A DNA stretch of 64,000 nt from Escherichia phage ECML-134 (JX128259); one strand, 5' to 3'; shown: positions 44,190 through 51,185, numbered from the stretch's first letter. Program-made: numbers and translations. The notes: generated by a model not told the origin, from the letters alone.

Positions 44190-44432
44190 TTATTCCTTAA
44201 TTCCTAGTACTTGTTTAAAAGTCTCGTCGTAATCAAGACTTTGGCCCGTTTGTTCTTTATGTTTGTACATAATATCACTTACTTCTGATAGCATATTTTT
44301 ATATGAACGAGTTAAAGCAGATTTAAGCACGCTGTATCTATCAGGAAATTTACCATGTTCATTATAATAAGCTATTACTAATTCACGGACTGCCTTTTCA
44401 GCAGTCTCCATATATTCTTTACGCTTGGTCAT
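44190..44432 (-). CDS. hypothetical protein
   Basis: ORF track gives 44190-44591; start moved to internal Met to avoid a long overlap with the zinc-ribbon ORF. Confidence 0.45.
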
Positions 44433-44736
44433 TTTCTTCTCGGTCAAATCGGTGTTTACAATGACGACATTTATAACGAAGATTACTAGTCTGCCAATGG
44501 ACCAATTGCACCTGTTCAGTTCCACATTCAGGGCAATTAGGAACGTTTTTAGAAGCCCTTTCACGACGTTCAACCATAACCATAATGGCATCCCAAGCAG
44601 GAGGTTTAAAGTCTAAATCGTCACAACCATGAATCTTTCCACGCATTTCCAAATCGTCTTCTTCACCAGCCATAATAATTTTAATTAGACTAGAATTACT
44701 TGAAGCTGCAATGTCTTCTAATAGACGCTTTTTCAT
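44419..44736 (-). CDS. zinc-ribbon protein
   Basis: 105-aa ORF; CPECG...CRHCKH. Confidence 0.55.
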
Positions 44737-45662
44737 TTCAATACCTCAATAGCATTACGTAAACCATTTGCTTTTGCATTAAGAGCTTTTAACAATTTGG
44801 TGTGTTCTGCAATTTGGGCTTCAACTTCAATCAAACGAGCATTGAGATATTCGCGTTCTTCACTCAGATTATCAACCTTTTCTACTTTAGGCTCTTTTAC
44901 AACTGTCTTATATGTATTAGGGTTCTTCAGTTTAATTAGAATGCGTGAACTGTATAACATTGAACCATTATTTTCGGTTTCGTCATACATTTCTACTACA
45001 TCCATAATTTTTAACATCATGCGGAGTTTATAAGACAACGAACGAATAGTTTTGTTGTGCTTATTAATTTCTTTAGCTGTCATGGTGCCGAGATTACGTG
45101 AGTAATAATAAGGAACCTGGATATTAATTAATACTGATGAACCACCTGGCTTGTGTGTTACTTCATCAGCAATAACCCAGTCCTTAACATGAACTGTATT
45201 TGTACGGTCATCACCCGCGGTAAACAGTTTGCGAGCATGCTTAAAAAGCATATTCACTTGGTCATTGAATTGACAAGCAAATTTATCAGCAAATTTAGTT
45301 TCAGGAATGGTAGATAACCAATCAGCCAAATGAGTCTTTTTAACATCGTTAACAATAGTAAATTCAACCAAATCGGTTATAGATGTCTCAGATTTAATAA
45401 AGCTCGGCTTCATAAAGTTTTTAATGTTATCGTGAGCTACAGTAGAAGATAACATACGAGAACGTTTAAACCATTCAAGCAAATTACCTAACGAATGAGA
45501 ATAAGCGTTTTGAGTATCTTTACAGATATGATTTTCCTGGCCAACATATTGAAGGAAATCACGAAGAATATTATTGATTACTGCTCTGTGTCCGATCTGA
45601 TAATTACGGTGTTTAGTAATAAGACTGTCAAAATAATCAATATAATGTTTACGAGTTTTCAT
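44733..45662 (-). CDS. accessory protein with C-terminal coiled coil, family member 1
   Basis: 309-aa ORF; last ~40 aa heptad-like EEREYLNARLIEVEAQIAEHTKLLKALNAK. Confidence 0.65.
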   Translation of the reverse strand: MKTRKHYIDYFDSLITKHRNYQIGHRAVINNILRDFLQYVGQENHICKDTQNAYSHSLGNLLEWFKRSRMLSSTVAHDNIKNFMKPSFIKSETSITDLVEFTIVNDVKKTHLADWLSTIPETKFADKFACQFNDQVNMLFKHARKLFTAGDDRTNTVHVKDWVIADEVTHKPGGSSVLINIQVPYYYSRNLGTMTAKEINKHNKTIRSLSYKLRMMLKIMDVVEMYDETENNGSMLYSSRILIKLKNPNTYKTVVKEPKVEKVDNLSEEREYLNARLIEVEAQIAEHTKLLKALNAKANGLRNAIEVLK

Positions 45663-45716
45663 GTTCTTCTCACTTGGTTAATGATTTATACTCCGAGCCA
45701 TCCTTGGCTTTAAATT

Positions 45717-46718
45717 TTACTTAATTAACTGTAAAGCTTGTTCAAGACGATCAAGACGATTAACAGATTCTTCCCAAATCTTTTTAGCCTGCTCATATTC
45801 TTTCTGCGCTTTATTAGAAATTTCTAGAACTTCCTTATAAGCTTTTTCTAATGCAATAACTTCTGGACGAATTTCTACCGGTTCAGGTGAATCATCAAGA
45901 TTATCCATTAGTTCCTCAAGGGTAGTTTCTTCTTTAGGAGTATTCACAATTTCATCACATTTTTGTTGGTAAATTTCTTTATCAGTAGGTGAATAAGCAC
46001 ATTTCACTTCACGAAGGCTAATTACGAGTTTATATCCTTCCCAACCGCATATATTCTTAAAAGGATATGTATGAATATTTTCTACTGTTTCCATACAAAG
46101 TAATGCGGTCTCTAATTGACGAGTTATAGTGCTAGCAATTGAGAAAAATTTATTAATATTCTTTTGGTTAGTTTCTGGTGTAAAAAATCCATAATTCACA
46201 AAAATAGATACTTTATTTTTATCAAGTTCATATTCTTTTATGATAATCATATCAGAAGCCAAAGGATGAATTTGACGATAATCGCCATAACATAATTTAG
46301 AAGCTGATTTTAGAATCTGTCCTTTGAAAAGTCTGAAATTACTAATCCAACGACGAGTAAAAATATTCTCAGGGTCTTCTTTGACATTAAGATGATAAGA
46401 ATTAACATCACCGAACCAATTATATCCTACTACATCTTTGGTTCGTTTAATTTCTTTCCCAAAATTACCAAGAATATCCCGATTAACCAAATATGAAAGA
46501 AGACGAGACTCTTTAAAGGTTTTCTTGATAACATCTTTATCTACACGGCTAGAAATTTTACGAATTTCATGAATAAATTTAGTAGAAGAAACAATACTTG
46601 CATCAACACTATTGAGCCATTGATTGATAATAGAAAGAACTATATTTTGGCCAAACATCGGTATAGCTTTATCATCAATAACGCTATTGAATGATTTGAT
46701 ATATTCGTTACGAGTCAT
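45717..46718 (-). CDS. accessory protein with C-terminal coiled coil, family member 2
   Basis: ORF track gives 45717-46748; start moved to Met 11 (GAGGAG Shine-Dalgarno; promoter lies inside the longer ORF). Confidence 0.65.
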   Translation of the reverse strand: MTRNEYIKSFNSVIDDKAIPMFGQNIVLSIINQWLNSVDASIVSSTKFIHEIRKISSRVDKDVIKKTFKESRLLSYLVNRDILGNFGKEIKRTKDVVGYNWFGDVNSYHLNVKEDPENIFTRRWISNFRLFKGQILKSASKLCYGDYRQIHPLASDMIIIKEYELDKNKVSIFVNYGFFTPETNQKNINKFFSIASTITRQLETALLCMETVENIHTYPFKNICGWEGYKLVISLREVKCAYSPTDKEIYQQKCDEIVNTPKEETTLEELMDNLDDSPEPVEIRPEVIALEKAYKEVLEISNKAQKEYEQAKKIWEESVNRLDRLEQALQLIK

Positions 46719-46746
46719 ATTAATCTCCTCAGTAGAAAGTAAGAAC

Positions 46747-46776
46747 ATTATACCACATCCTTGTGGAAAAGTAAAC
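46747..46776 (-). promoter_or_regulatory. early sigma70-type promoter
   Basis: gtaaac at 46771-46776; -10 TATAAT; spacer contains ccacatccttgtgg inverted repeat as at 2436-2449. Confidence 0.55.
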
Positions 46777-47798
46777 TAGTTCAGTGCATTTAGTGCATTG
46801 TTCAGTTTAGAACGTTGCTTCGTAAGATTTTTGACTTTTTCTTGAGCTTTTTCCAGCATCTTTTCAGCTTCTAACACTTCATTAGTTGCTTTAACAAGTT
46901 CATCATCTACTGCCTTGATAGACTTCTCAATCGCATCCGCGTGCCATTTTTCAACAGGTTTAAGACTCGGATTTTCAATAGGAAGAAAATTCACTTTATT
47001 GAATTTCCATGCATCTTTATTACCTGAGCTATACATCCAAAATTTAGGATCGTTTGATGAGCAATTAGATAAATTTAAGTTATCTTGCACTTCCTGCTTT
47101 TTCTCTTGCGGGACTTCATCCTTTCTCAAAAAATCATATTTAAATGAAACGATCATATCAAGTTCATACGTTGTTGTATGTTCCCAATTTCGCTCAAAAT
47201 GAGGTAAAATCTTAGACTGAACTGCAGCAACAACATCCATATACTTAAATGCTTCTGTCAACTGCGATTTAAGGCATTCGCAAATTGAAAGAGAATTTTT
47301 TGTATTAGGTTTAAAGCTAATTCGTGCAGTTCTATTATTTTCTTTTAACGGTCTTACTTCCATCTGAAGAGTATAACCATCAAATTTCAGGTTCTTTAAG
47401 TTAATGTCAGAACCTTTTAATCGACTAGCCGTCGACAAAATTTGCTTTAATTGTTTACGGAATAGAGCAATAAATCTCCATTCAATACGATAATGATTTG
47501 GATTGAAAAATCCAGATGATAAATCGACCTTACTCTGACCAACACCTTGAACAAATAGAGGATTTTTATAATCAATAGTTTTACAGAAATCGGTGAGCTG
47601 CTCACGAGCAGTCATTTGTGTAATATATCCTGCTTCGCTAAAATTACGCACCCATTCGCTGCTGTTCAAATGTTTAAAGGCATGAATTGAACAATTAACT
47701 TTACCAAGGTCTAAATTATTTTCACACAAAAATGTCATAGCATCACGAGTATAGCTGGCATTACGAACCATATCTTCAATTTGAGAACGAGTTTTCAT
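46776..47798 (-). CDS. accessory protein with C-terminal coiled coil, family member 3
   Basis: 340-aa ORF; MKTR start as in member 1; coiled-coil tail. Confidence 0.65.
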   Translation of the reverse strand: MKTRSQIEDMVRNASYTRDAMTFLCENNLDLGKVNCSIHAFKHLNSSEWVRNFSEAGYITQMTAREQLTDFCKTIDYKNPLFVQGVGQSKVDLSSGFFNPNHYRIEWRFIALFRKQLKQILSTASRLKGSDINLKNLKFDGYTLQMEVRPLKENNRTARISFKPNTKNSLSICECLKSQLTEAFKYMDVVAAVQSKILPHFERNWEHTTTYELDMIVSFKYDFLRKDEVPQEKKQEVQDNLNLSNCSSNDPKFWMYSSGNKDAWKFNKVNFLPIENPSLKPVEKWHADAIEKSIKAVDDELVKATNEVLEAEKMLEKAQEKVKNLTKQRSKLNNALNALN

Positions 47799-47806
47799 GG
47801 TGTTCC

Positions 47807-48718
47807 TTAAGATTTAAGTAAATCAACAATTTTAATTAACTTTTCACGCTCAGATTTAGCTTTACTACTCAGTCCAGATAGTCTGAAAATTTCATCGTCA
47901 TATTGTTGAATAGAAATATTCAGCTCTTCAATCTGTTTATTAAAATAATCAATTTGTTCAGAATGTTTTTCGTTACTACGAACTGGTGCAGGTTTTGTAG
48001 GCAATTTAGTTGAACTGGATTTATCCGGGCGATAAATTAAAATGCAATTTGAACCAATCGGGCATTTAGCACCAGATGAATATTCTAACGTTCCAGCTTC
48101 TTTTAAAACTTCAAAAGCTAAACAGAGATGATGCCCCATATTAACATAATCCGTAGAGCGAGCTCTGACGTAATAATCATCTCCACGAGTACTAAATTTA
48201 AAGCATTTAAGGTCTTCTGTATTATTAGTTTTAAAAATCATTTGTTTATCTAGACCTTTAGCTAATCGAGCGCCTAATGCTAATAATCGTCGTTGATTTT
48301 CCCACAAATCCGCAATCATTTGGTCGAATGATAATTTTGGCATTAGTCGGCCATAAAGGTCATATCCTTTATTATAATTACGAAGGATTTCACTCGCGTT
48401 AATACGAGACAACGCTCCAATTTTATTAAGGGCTTTCATGATGCGATTAGATAAACCCATTCCAGACCCGTTTGTTCGTTGTAAATGTTTTTCTAATCCA
48501 AACCCAATATCAACTTTAAACTTATCTAAAATTTCTGCATGAACATCTCTGTCAATAACATTCAAATCCAAAGTTGGGTTAAATCTATGAAAAAATTTAT
48601 CCGGCTCTCCACGACGAAGTACAGTCCATTCATTCAATTTTTTATTAACTAAAGATTTAATTACTGCATTGACATTATTAATTACTACTGACATATTTTC
48701 CTCACTCAATTTTACCAA
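47807..48718 (-). CDS. accessory protein with C-terminal coiled coil, family member 4
   Basis: 303-aa ORF; coiled-coil tail QIDYFNKQIEELNISIQQYDDEIFRL. Confidence 0.65.
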   Translation of the reverse strand: MVKLSEENMSVVINNVNAVIKSLVNKKLNEWTVLRRGEPDKFFHRFNPTLDLNVIDRDVHAEILDKFKVDIGFGLEKHLQRTNGSGMGLSNRIMKALNKIGALSRINASEILRNYNKGYDLYGRLMPKLSFDQMIADLWENQRRLLALGARLAKGLDKQMIFKTNNTEDLKCFKFSTRGDDYYVRARSTDYVNMGHHLCLAFEVLKEAGTLEYSSGAKCPIGSNCILIYRPDKSSSTKLPTKPAPVRSNEKHSEQIDYFNKQIEELNISIQQYDDEIFRLSGLSSKAKSEREKLIKIVDLLKS

Positions 48719-49103
48719 TTACGCGGAATAAGATTGAACAAACTATATAAGTACCACATATAGATTGAACTAATGCCATTCCAAAGAACCAAACAATATT
48801 ATCAAACCATGTCTGTTTTACGTCGAAAGGACGTAAACTTACAGTAATATTATCACCTTTTTCTATTGAAGAATACATCTCTGGTGAAATATATTCGCTA
48901 AATCTATAACCGTCTTTGAGTTCATATACGGCAATAAACGATAAACTAGATCCCTTTCCTTGAGTTCCTGTAAAGGTATTAACTACAGTAACATCATAAT
49001 CTTTATAATGCATATAATCATTAATTGCGTAATAACCATATGCAATTACTATACATAAACAACATATCAATAAATTCAATCTTTTAATTATCAACTGTTT
49101 CAT
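48702..49103 (-). CDS. membrane protein
   Basis: 133-aa ORF; N-terminal and C-terminal hydrophobic segments. Confidence 0.55.
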   Translation of the reverse strand: MKQLIIKRLNLLICCLCIVIAYGYYAINDYMHYKDYDVTVVNTFTGTQGKGSSLSFIAVYELKDGYRFSEYISPEMYSSIEKGDNITVSLRPFDVKQTWFDNIVWFFGMALVQSICGTYIVCSILFRVIGKIE

Positions 49104-49158
49104 AATAATCTCAATTAAAAGGGCTTAGAACCATTATACCATCCTTGGTATAAAGCGG

Positions 49159-49686
49159 TTATGCGAGTACCGTCTTTAACCGTTCTTCAAATTTCCGAAG
49201 AGTATTCTGGCGTTCAGCTCTTTGCTTTTTGTAAGTTTCAATACGCTCTGAAATGAGAGTGTATCGTTCATTTACTGATTCTTTCATAAAATCAGGAATT
49301 TCACGAGAAGCTTTAATCTCATCAAATTTATCAATAACAGCTTGCTCTTCAGCAATTAAGTTATCATACATCAAAATATCTTTCTTGATGAACTCAATAT
49401 CTTCTTGAGTTACACGAGATAACTTAGATGCTTTATCCTTTTTGTACTGTTCGTTAGTATCACGAGACCAGTGTAATGTACGATTTTTATTCGTATTTTT
49501 GTAAATTTCTACAATACCAATCTCATCGATAATAACGATCCAATTCCAACGAGATTTGTAAATTTGCCCTCCGTCAACCGTGATTTCACCTCCGATTGAG
49601 ATGTCATTAAAGAACTTGCTTTGTGCTTCAGATTTAAATTTACCATCGTTGTAATTTACCAGGTTGAAAATATCTTTAGCGTTCAT
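49159..49686 (-). CDS. accessory protein with C-terminal coiled coil, family member 5
   Basis: ORF track gives 49159-49746; start moved to internal Met after GGAGG; N-terminal GTIQLS of the track ORF is translated promoter. Confidence 0.55.
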   Translation of the reverse strand: MNAKDIFNLVNYNDGKFKSEAQSKFFNDISIGGEITVDGGQIYKSRWNWIVIIDEIGIVEIYKNTNKNRTLHWSRDTNEQYKKDKASKLSRVTQEDIEFIKKDILMYDNLIAEEQAVIDKFDEIKASREIPDFMKESVNERYTLISERIETYKKQRAERQNTLRKFEERLKTVLA

Positions 49687-49714
49687 TTTGTGTTCCTCCG
49701 TAGTTGATAGTTGT

Positions 49715-49744
49715 ATAGTACCACAGAGGAACGGTCTTGTAAAC
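49715..49744 (-). promoter_or_regulatory. early sigma70-type promoter
   Basis: gtaaac at 49739-49744; -10 TACTAT; conserved transcribed start ACAACTATCAAC. Confidence 0.55.
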
Positions 49745-49746
49745 AA

Positions 49747-50061
49747 CTAAAAGAAACTTCTTTCACAATTTTTTCCACTGAACCAAGCGCTCACTGCTTT
49801 CTTAGTCTCAGGAGCGGTGTTATCCATAAACCATTCAAAGGCAGCCTTTTTATGATTCTGGAGGGCTTCTCGGGCTTTAATCTGCTCACGGTCTATTAAC
49901 ACTAACATATGAGCCTTTCTTGTCACCATGGGCTTCTTATGATTTTTTGAATATTCCCAATCATTTGTCCAGCGCATCGTTGTTGCGAATTGAAGTACAG
50001 CTTCTTTAATCTTAGTTTCGTAAATTTCACGAGCCTTTGAGTATAACATCATTACCTCCAT
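49747..50061 (-). CDS. hypothetical protein
   Basis: 104-aa ORF. Confidence 0.55.
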   Translation of the reverse strand: MEVMMLYSKAREIYETKIKEAVLQFATTMRWTNDWEYSKNHKKPMVTRKAHMLVLIDREQIKAREALQNHKKAAFEWFMDNTAPETKKAVSAWFSGKNCERSFF

Positions 50062-50150
50062 TTACCAGTTTAATTCTAGTCATCTTTTTAATGGCAGTCC
50101 ATATAATCTATTTCTGAACTGCCTTTTGTCTTAGAAGTCCTCTTATGAAT

Positions 50151-51155: not shown

Positions 51156-51185
51156 ATAGTATCACACTACTACCCTTCTGTAAAC
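51156..51185 (-). promoter_or_regulatory. early sigma70-type promoter
   Basis: gtaaac at 51180-51185; -10 TACTAT. Confidence 0.5.

Follow-up and report, generated by a model that had tools for sequence, protein, structure and literature searches.

Escherichia phage ECML-134 (JX128259) carries, downstream of nrdC, an array of small genes orthologous to nrdC.3, nrdC.4, nrdC.5, nrdC.6 and nrdC.8 of phage T4. We analyzed these genes in a 64,000-nucleotide stretch of the genome (hereafter, the window) and conclude that, as far as can be judged from their sequences, nrdC.3, nrdC.4, nrdC.5 and nrdC.6 are ancient, fast-evolving tandem paralogues of a single gene and form one superfamily. Its members have a common layout: a helical N-terminal part and an alpha/beta-sandwich body, followed by a disordered linker rich in proline and charged residues and by a C-terminal amphipathic helix of 48-59 residues. 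We give a probability of about 0.6 to the reading that the four genes constitute an array of anti-defence paralogues, in which fast-evolving, target-binding bodies are mounted on a conserved oligomerising tail. The genes themselves are already known, one of them with a published function; the superfamily link and the domain layout are new.

An earlier examination of the window by a model given nothing but the sequence (the sequence-only reading) had described five tandem genes with unrelated N-terminal domains and a common C-terminal tail. In four of these genes the bodies prove to be related, as profile comparisons join nrdC.3/4, nrdC.5 and nrdC.6. The closest pair is nrdC.3 and nrdC.4, both of which match phrog_1435 over their full length and can be aligned by BLASTP with 25% identity over 226 body residues (E 2.6e-6). 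This was the only pair found when the five proteins were compared with each other by BLASTP, and the remaining links needed profiles, which we built for each family from the array in 20 loci of four genera. Using hhalign, nrdC.3 and nrdC.4 were joined with 98% probability (E 2e-13), and the initial profiles joined nrdC.3+4 to nrdC.5 over the body with 88.8% probability (E 2.5e-6). With profiles enriched by the intermediate sequences described below, the match between nrdC.3/4 and nrdC.5 rose to 96.7% (E 4.4e-10), extending over 253 columns as far as the C-terminus, and nrdC.6 matched nrdC.3/4 with 95.3% probability (E 2.1e-8); the direct comparison of nrdC.6 with nrdC.5 gave just 52% (E 1.4e-4). 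In addition, an MKTR/MTR N-terminus is common to nrdC.3, nrdC.4 and nrdC.5.

Two full-length metagenomic proteins are intermediate between the families, each matching two of them in both body and tail in local hidden Markov model (HMM) searches. One (P0137) is of the nrdC.3/4 type (Pfam Y04OP), and its tail module is matched by the nrdC.5 profile with E 1.8e-7. The other (P0139) is of the nrdC.6 type and matches nrdC.6 and nrdC.5, with E 1.8e-4 for the nrdC.5 profile on its tail module. The nrdC.5 family is itself narrow: when 1.84 billion representative proteins were scanned exhaustively with its profile by HMMER, only 15 were hit, the two intermediates among them. Taken together, the whole-length paralogy and the intermediates indicate that the tail was inherited from one ancestral gene. 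The notion of a common tail module on variable bodies thus stands in so far as a conserved tail is real, but for four of the five genes this tail came with the whole protein and was not grafted onto it.

In Pfam and PHROGs, the proteins that we join here are distributed among three separate families of unknown function, and the window proteins are members of the sequence families PF26897 and PF26899 and of PHROGs 1435, 2351 and 2257. The nrdC.6 family corresponds to phrog_2257, and PF26899 (Phage_T4_Y05B) is recorded for its Mosigvirus orthologues P0057-P0060. PF26897 (Phage_T4_Y04OP) gave no match to nrdC.3 or nrdC.4 in our Pfam search and is recorded for the relatives P0056 and P0137. The first of these relatives, encoded on a 167-kb metagenomic phage contig (corresponding to ~44733-47360 of the window), is a fusion in which nrdC.5 residues ~147-270 continue in frame into nrdC.3 from residue ~138; the fusion points to a deletion of nrdC.4 through recombination between paralogues at a short FN..VN microhomology.

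Two further candidates from these searches were rejected. A 173-amino-acid open reading frame (ORF) on an 803-bp ENA contig (P0062, L023) combines an unrelated 120-residue N-terminus with a tail 100% identical to that of nrdC.5; it was considered as a module swap and set aside as a probable assembly chimera, since the junction coincides with a drop in GC content from 0.42 to 0.34 and no phage record matches the N-terminus. Residues 30-86 of nrdC.3 resemble the SAM-like N-domain of tyrosine recombinases and XerD at a sub-threshold level (Pfam E 0.069; NCBIfam NF001399 E 0.002; XerD equivalog E 0.015), far under the cut-offs, and this assignment was not retained. NCBIfam otherwise gave no match for the window proteins.

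The C-terminal tails of the five proteins are heptad-like, and this is not a chance pattern. We scored the excess of hydrophobic residues at the a/d positions over the other positions, in the best register of the last 35 residues, for 82 crude gene calls. The tails of nrdC.3, nrdC.4, nrdC.5, nrdC.6 and nrdC.8 together took ranks 1, 2, 3, 4 and 8, and shuffling each tail gave p = 0.0002-0.03. A stricter filter, which also demanded absence of proline and at least 30% charged or polar residues, was passed by 7 of the 82 genes; five of these seven lie inside six consecutive genes (p = 2.7e-4 by simulated random placement). The same filter, applied at the syntenic loci of three other phages, was passed by array members only, plus a marginal nrdC.1. 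The nrdC.4 tail also has the top heptad hydrophobic moment in the window. A proline-free C-terminal stretch of 48-60 residues, measured as the length after the last proline, occurs in all nrdC.3-6 members; for nrdC.3, nrdC.4 and nrdC.6 the helix is deduced from 48-58 such residues only, and for nrdC.5 and nrdC.8 helices were modelled by AlphaFold2 (AF2). In this respect, the sequence-only reading, whose example peptide is the C-terminus of nrdC.4, was right about the charged, heptad-like tails; the alignments restricted to the tails, by which it had proposed to check their homology, are weak.

What the four paralogous tails do share is phase and a terminal motif. The heptad phase relative to the terminal motif is identical in nrdC.3, nrdC.4, nrdC.5 and nrdC.6, with the last residue in register e for nrdC.3 and nrdC.4 and with nrdC.6 agreeing with the other three at its LLK motif; we estimate the chance of an identical phase in four tails at ~(1/7)^3. 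The motif of the nrdC.5 type, [RK]-x-K-L-x-x-A-[LI]-x-x-L-[KN], has recognisable variants in the other three; the general form for the four tails reads L-x-x-A/I-[LIV]-x-x-[LI]-[KN]. The paralogues have in common core positions and this motif only, and their solvent-exposed positions differ almost completely. At the DNA level, repeats between the genes amount to short chance matches only, so the tails have undergone no recent gene conversion or exchange. We therefore think that the nrdC.3-6 tails are best read as homologous by descent and strongly diverged. As the signal from the tails taken by themselves is weak, this reading draws on the homology of the whole proteins, the intermediates, the common phase and the terminal motif.

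Four genera of Escherichia coli-infecting Tevenvirinae carry the array, with 3-4 copies, at one and the same position downstream of nrdC. The gene order is nrdC.8-.7-.6-.5-.4-.3 in Tequatrovirus, nrdC.8-.6-.5-.3 in Mosigvirus, and nrdC.8-.6-(small ORF)-.5-.4 in Gaprivervirus and Dhakavirus. Since the other genera hold only one of nrdC.3 and nrdC.4, this pair represents a Tequatrovirus-specific duplication. In Klebsiella phage JD18 (Jiaodavirus), the corresponding position holds just one member, gp070, which hhalign joined to the family with 91% probability (E 9e-7).

Throughout the orthologous families, conservation is higher in the tail than in the body (0.35 versus 0.25, 0.64 versus 0.43, 0.78 versus 0.60 and 0.62 versus 0.40), with bodies and linkers bearing most of the substitutions and indels. 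The ratio of nonsynonymous to synonymous substitution rates (dN/dS), estimated from 3-6 genomes, was 0.11-0.18 for nrdC.3, nrdC.4 and nrdC.6 and 0.28 for nrdC.7, compared with 0.03 for nrdC.8 and a range of 0.01-0.09 for nrdC.8, nrdC.9, nrdC.10, nrdC.11, nrdC.1 and nrdC. Identity spectra over about 550-740 phage genomes pointed in the same direction. This pattern suggests that the nrdC.3-6 bodies may be engaged in an arms race, and a tail that is the best-conserved part under fast-changing bodies fits a conserved role in oligomerisation or docking.

The layout is seen most clearly in nrdC.5, which sits between nrdC.4 and nrdC.6 as it does in T4 and matches PF23882 (DUF7235) over residues 1-340 (E 3e-126; 421 bits versus a gathering cut-off of 30). 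Its AF2 model was computed from a 33-sequence alignment whose diversity came from a homologue search with nrdC.5 sequences from outside Tequatrovirus. The body, residues 1-223, is mostly confident, with predicted local distance difference test (pLDDT) values by block of mostly 78-92; residues 224-280 fall below 50, as predicted for a disordered linker; and residues 282-339 form one uninterrupted helix with pLDDT 80-92. In a family whose members are 25-30% identical, the tail positions N324, Q328, K331, L332, A335, A338 and L339 are invariant. The family alignment places an insertion of exactly seven residues in the tail of Tequatrovirus; an indel of this length keeps the heptad register, which is a hallmark of coiled coils. 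A sequence search of the PDB produced coiled-coil noise only (Smc, MARVELD2, viral fusion proteins), and BFVD hits of the model include uncharacterised proteins from two T4-like phages, Cronus and Mineola (E 4e-7).

A function has been published for T4 nrdC.5. Srikant, Guegler and Laub (eLife 2022; PMC9391042) reported that its expression restores the growth on dsr1 cells of an evolved T4 clone from which this region had been lost, that its target Dsr1 is a SIR2-type defence protein, and that nrdC.5 is early and non-essential, evolved clones lacking this region being viable. According to a preprint, Dsr1 senses the major capsid protein via a tetratricopeptide repeat (TPR) sensor (PMC12803255). 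We had considered the nrdC.5 body as a decoy of a Dsr1-triggering tail protein and dropped the idea, as the preprint names the capsid protein instead. The literature that we searched contains no mention of the body-linker-helix layout of nrdC.5 or of its paralogy with its neighbours.

Thus, we propose that nrdC.3-6 encode a family of early-expressed anti-defence proteins. The globular body would be the target binder, diversifying in an arms race, and nrdC.3, nrdC.4 and nrdC.6 would most likely be directed at other factors of host defence or host range. The tail would be a homo-oligomerising coiled coil joining two or more bodies on flexible tethers, and such tethered multiple bodies could provide avidity for oligomeric targets.

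Several results weigh against this proposal. The published anti-defence activity concerns T4 nrdC.5 alone and not nrdC.3, nrdC.4 or nrdC.6 (PMC9391042), and our literature search found neither a mechanism for nrdC.5 nor direct binding to Dsr1. The dN/dS values, from only 3-6 genomes, are below 1 throughout. The AF2 models are of monomers, and that of nrdC.5 has a moderate mean pLDDT of 74. When the last 40-42 residues of the nrdC.3-6 tails were compared against a null that permutes columns within heptad position, p was 0.05-0.22, and leave-one-family-out HMMs of 40-residue tails did not recover the omitted family. Finally, nrdC.6 of the T4 reference (NC_000866, L001:9990-10250) is annotated with 275 amino acids because a 1-nucleotide deletion (CTGAATAT to CTGA-TAT) frameshifts the tail off, the complete coiled-coil tail still being readable in the other frame; in the window (47800-48000) and in most isolates the gene is intact with 295 amino acids. 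The lesion is either one of the laboratory strain or a sequencing error, and the frameshift implies that the tail is dispensable for growth on laboratory hosts.

Of the other explanations, the one that fares best is that the tails are a common docking module which brings different effector bodies to one partner, be it a protein of the host or another one of the phage; NrdC.8 would be the obvious hub. It would account for the tail being the most conserved region in every family and for the properties of nrdC.8, which always adjoins the array in the four genera, is under strong constraint (dN/dS 0.03) and has two long heptad-like helices. Yet a common partner would be expected to conserve a surface, and it is the exposed heptad positions that differ between the paralogues. 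Moreover, the tails are no more alike than heptad-preserving permutations, and JD18 has a family member, yet no nrdC.8 homologue was detected in that locus. We regard docking as unlikely, and as less likely than a self-oligomerising tail, with NrdC.8 the natural candidate for a hub. A bolder variant, to which we give still lower odds, is a hub-and-spoke machine in which invariant NrdC.8 would bundle with the NrdC.3-6 tails and display interchangeable, tethered inhibitor heads for different immune proteins, Dsr1 being the first target identified.

The sequence-only reading had counted nrdC.8 among the sharers of the common tail. With the tails of nrdC.3-6 it has only generic heptad character in common, and no relation of its body to theirs could be detected: hhalign gave a probability of at most 0.5% against the other families, and neither HMM comparisons nor the tail HMM produced a match. 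Under the heptad null, comparison of its tail with those of nrdC.3-6 gave p 0.08-0.45 (0.21-0.45 versus nrdC.3, nrdC.4 and nrdC.5) with inconsistent best offsets. The AF2 model has helices at residues 94-126 and 132-174 and a beta-rich N-domain of low confidence, and the fold search in BFVD with this model returned its own family only. A 175-amino-acid KPV15 protein among the fold hits of nrdC.5 had raised the idea of nrdC.8 as a truncated family member, which its own fold search does not support. It is also under quite different selection from nrdC.3-6: of 740 phage records compared by tblastn, 401 have the protein with an identity of 99% or more. We conclude that nrdC.8 is a separate, strongly constrained small protein with a look-alike helical C-terminus.

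The fold of the nrdC.5 body raises another possibility, namely that the bodies, which may resemble the RNA polymerase alpha N-terminal/Rpb11 dimerisation domain and tail-terminator proteins, are not anti-defence in general and could act on host transcription or virion assembly, the effect on Dsr1 being indirect. Foldseek gave weak hits of the nrdC.5 model to tail completion proteins. Alpha/beta sandwiches of this kind, however, are small and common, the matches have 4-15% identity and cover the structures only in part, and nrdC.5 is early and non-essential rather than late and structural, the region being deleted in viable T4 clones (PMC9391042), so that we find such a role improbable. That the amphipathic helices at the ends of five unrelated small proteins are a coincidence, such helices being frequent in AT-rich phage genomes with much K, E and L, agrees with the lack of demonstrable homology of nrdC.8 to the others and with the weakness of the tail-only statistics even within nrdC.3-6, but as an account of the array we hold it to be improbable as well, and for nrdC.3-6 it is already refuted by the whole-length homology with its intermediates, by the clustering of heptad tails here and at the three other phage loci, and by the identical C-terminal phase in four proteins.

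The anti-defence array that we propose can be compared with known systems. The window nrdC.5 is the orthologue of T4 NrdC.5 (Y05A_BPT4; DUF7235), as judged from its identity (Table 1), the same neighbours and the full-length Pfam match. DSAD1 (PMC11087589, PMC10981675) is, like nrdC.5, a phage protein that counters a defence-associated sirtuin, DSR2 in its case and Dsr1 in that of nrdC.5; DSAD1 binds its sirtuin directly. No DSAD1 chain was among the top PDB matches of the nrdC.5 search, which included no dedicated comparison with DSAD1. The T4 anti-TA (toxin-antitoxin) island (dmd, tifA, adfA) and further counter-defence clusters of the T4 hyperplastic regions likewise consist of small accessory genes that are early and non-essential and determine host range (PMC9391042); those neighbours are mutually unrelated, whereas the nrdC.3-6 array consists of duplicates of one gene with a common tail.

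T4 is the best-studied phage, and yet only nrdC.5 of the five genes has an assigned function. The paralogy nominates nrdC.3, nrdC.4 and nrdC.6 as candidates for counter-defence or host-range genes, and the body-linker-helix layout separates the variable head from the conserved tail. The array would be an example of a phage counter-defence repertoire enlarged by tandem duplication and divergence rather than by the acquisition of unrelated genes. Overall, the insight is modest and concerns genes already known, but it can be tested directly.

The window is from a Tequatrovirus. Over the 5.7-kb part that holds the array (~44400-50100), identity is 99.5% to Escherichia phage vB_EcoM_SCS4 and 90% or higher to several hundred genomes of this genus. 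The five ORFs of the sequence-only reading are confirmed as minus-strand orthologues of T4 nrdC.3, nrdC.4, nrdC.5, nrdC.6 and nrdC.8 by gene order and sequence, and all are annotated coding sequences in both SCS4 and T4 (Table 1). One boundary was adjusted, the likeliest start of nrdC.6 being the ATG at 48694 rather than the TTG at 48718.

Table 1. Features of the nrdC.3-nrdC.8 region of the window (aa, amino acids; heptad, heptad score with its rank among the 82 gene calls)
Feature	Coordinates	Strand	Description and evidence
nrdC.3	44733..45662	-	309 aa; T4 synteny; phrog_1435 full-length, E 1.6e-116; Pfam Y04OP type
nrdC.3 tail	44736..44888	-	last 51 residues past final proline; heptad 0.78, rank 2/82, shuffle p 0.0016
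nrdC.4	45717..46718	-	333 aa; phrog_1435 E 4.6e-168; T4 synteny
nrdC.4 tail	45720..45863	-	last 48 residues; end ...RLEQALQLIK; heptad 0.54, rank 8/82, shuffle p 0.031
promoter-like match 5' of nrdC.4	46747..46775	-	sigma-70/T4-early-like TTTACT-17-TATAAT with TG; consensus scan only
nrdC.5	46776..47798	-	340 aa; Pfam DUF7235; 92% identity to T4 NrdC.5
nrdC.5 body, residues 1-223	47130..47798	-	N-terminal helices, then alpha/beta sandwich
nrdC.5 linker, residues 224-281	46956..47129	-	predicted disordered; indel-rich between genera
nrdC.5 tail module, residues 282-340	46779..46955	-	single long helix; end ...QRSKLNNALNALN; heptad 0.82, rank 1/82
nrdC.6	47807..48694	-	295 aa; phrog_2257 E 6.4e-152; most divergent superfamily member
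nrdC.6 tail	47810..47983	-	last 58 residues past final proline; end ...REKLIKIVDLLKS; heptad 0.60, rank 4/82
nrdC.7	48702..49103	-	predicted membrane protein inside the array (between nrdC.6 and nrdC.8); T4 annotation
nrdC.8	49159..49686	-	175 aa; two long helices on a small, beta-rich N-domain
nrdC.8 terminal helix	49162..49293	-	last 44 residues, heptad-like; heptad 0.72, rank 3/82
promoter-like match 5' of nrdC.8	49715..49743	-	TTTACA-17-TACTAT with TG; consensus scan only

The membrane protein gene nrdC.7 gave no match to any family HMM. Only in Tequatrovirus does it lie inside the array; the homologue in Mosigvirus JS09 (L005:10895-11308) is located between nrdC and nrdC.2, and the VR7 and Bp7 arrays contain no annotated copy. 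These differences in placement indicate that nrdC.7 moved independently of the paralogue array.

In most GenBank records, the homologues of nrdC.3-nrdC.8 are labelled hypothetical, and many are mislabelled 'thioredoxin' after the nearby nrdC, an annotation error that recurs across the database. Elsewhere, nrdC.8 is labelled 'tail sheath protein', 'spanin' or 'ribonucleotide reductase alpha subunit', and nrdC.4 bears the names of reductase subunits. The nrdC.3-nrdC.8 proteins contain no such domain, and the wrong names apparently spread from the gene symbols.

The two promoter-like matches of Table 1 are accompanied by a third TTTAC(A/T)-17-TA..AT match with an extended -10 TG at 51156-51184 on the minus strand, in the gap upstream of nrdC.10. 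Their positions in the gaps before nrdC.4, nrdC.8 and nrdC.10 suggest that transcription may start at several points in the array; over the whole consensus scan, matches were no more numerous than the shuffled expectation. The site at 46775-46747 favours a start of nrdC.4 at 46718 over one at 46748.

Next to the array, nrdC.2 (44419-44736, minus strand, 105 amino acids) overlaps each of its neighbours by a few bases and has a C-terminal four-cysteine zinc-ribbon (CPEC...CRHC); zinc-ribbon families of Pfam give it many weak hits. The 82 crude gene calls, each of at least 80 amino acids, all lie on the minus strand, and the GC skew is uniformly negative over the 64 kb, in keeping with the long early/middle region of T4-type genomes that is transcribed counter-clockwise.

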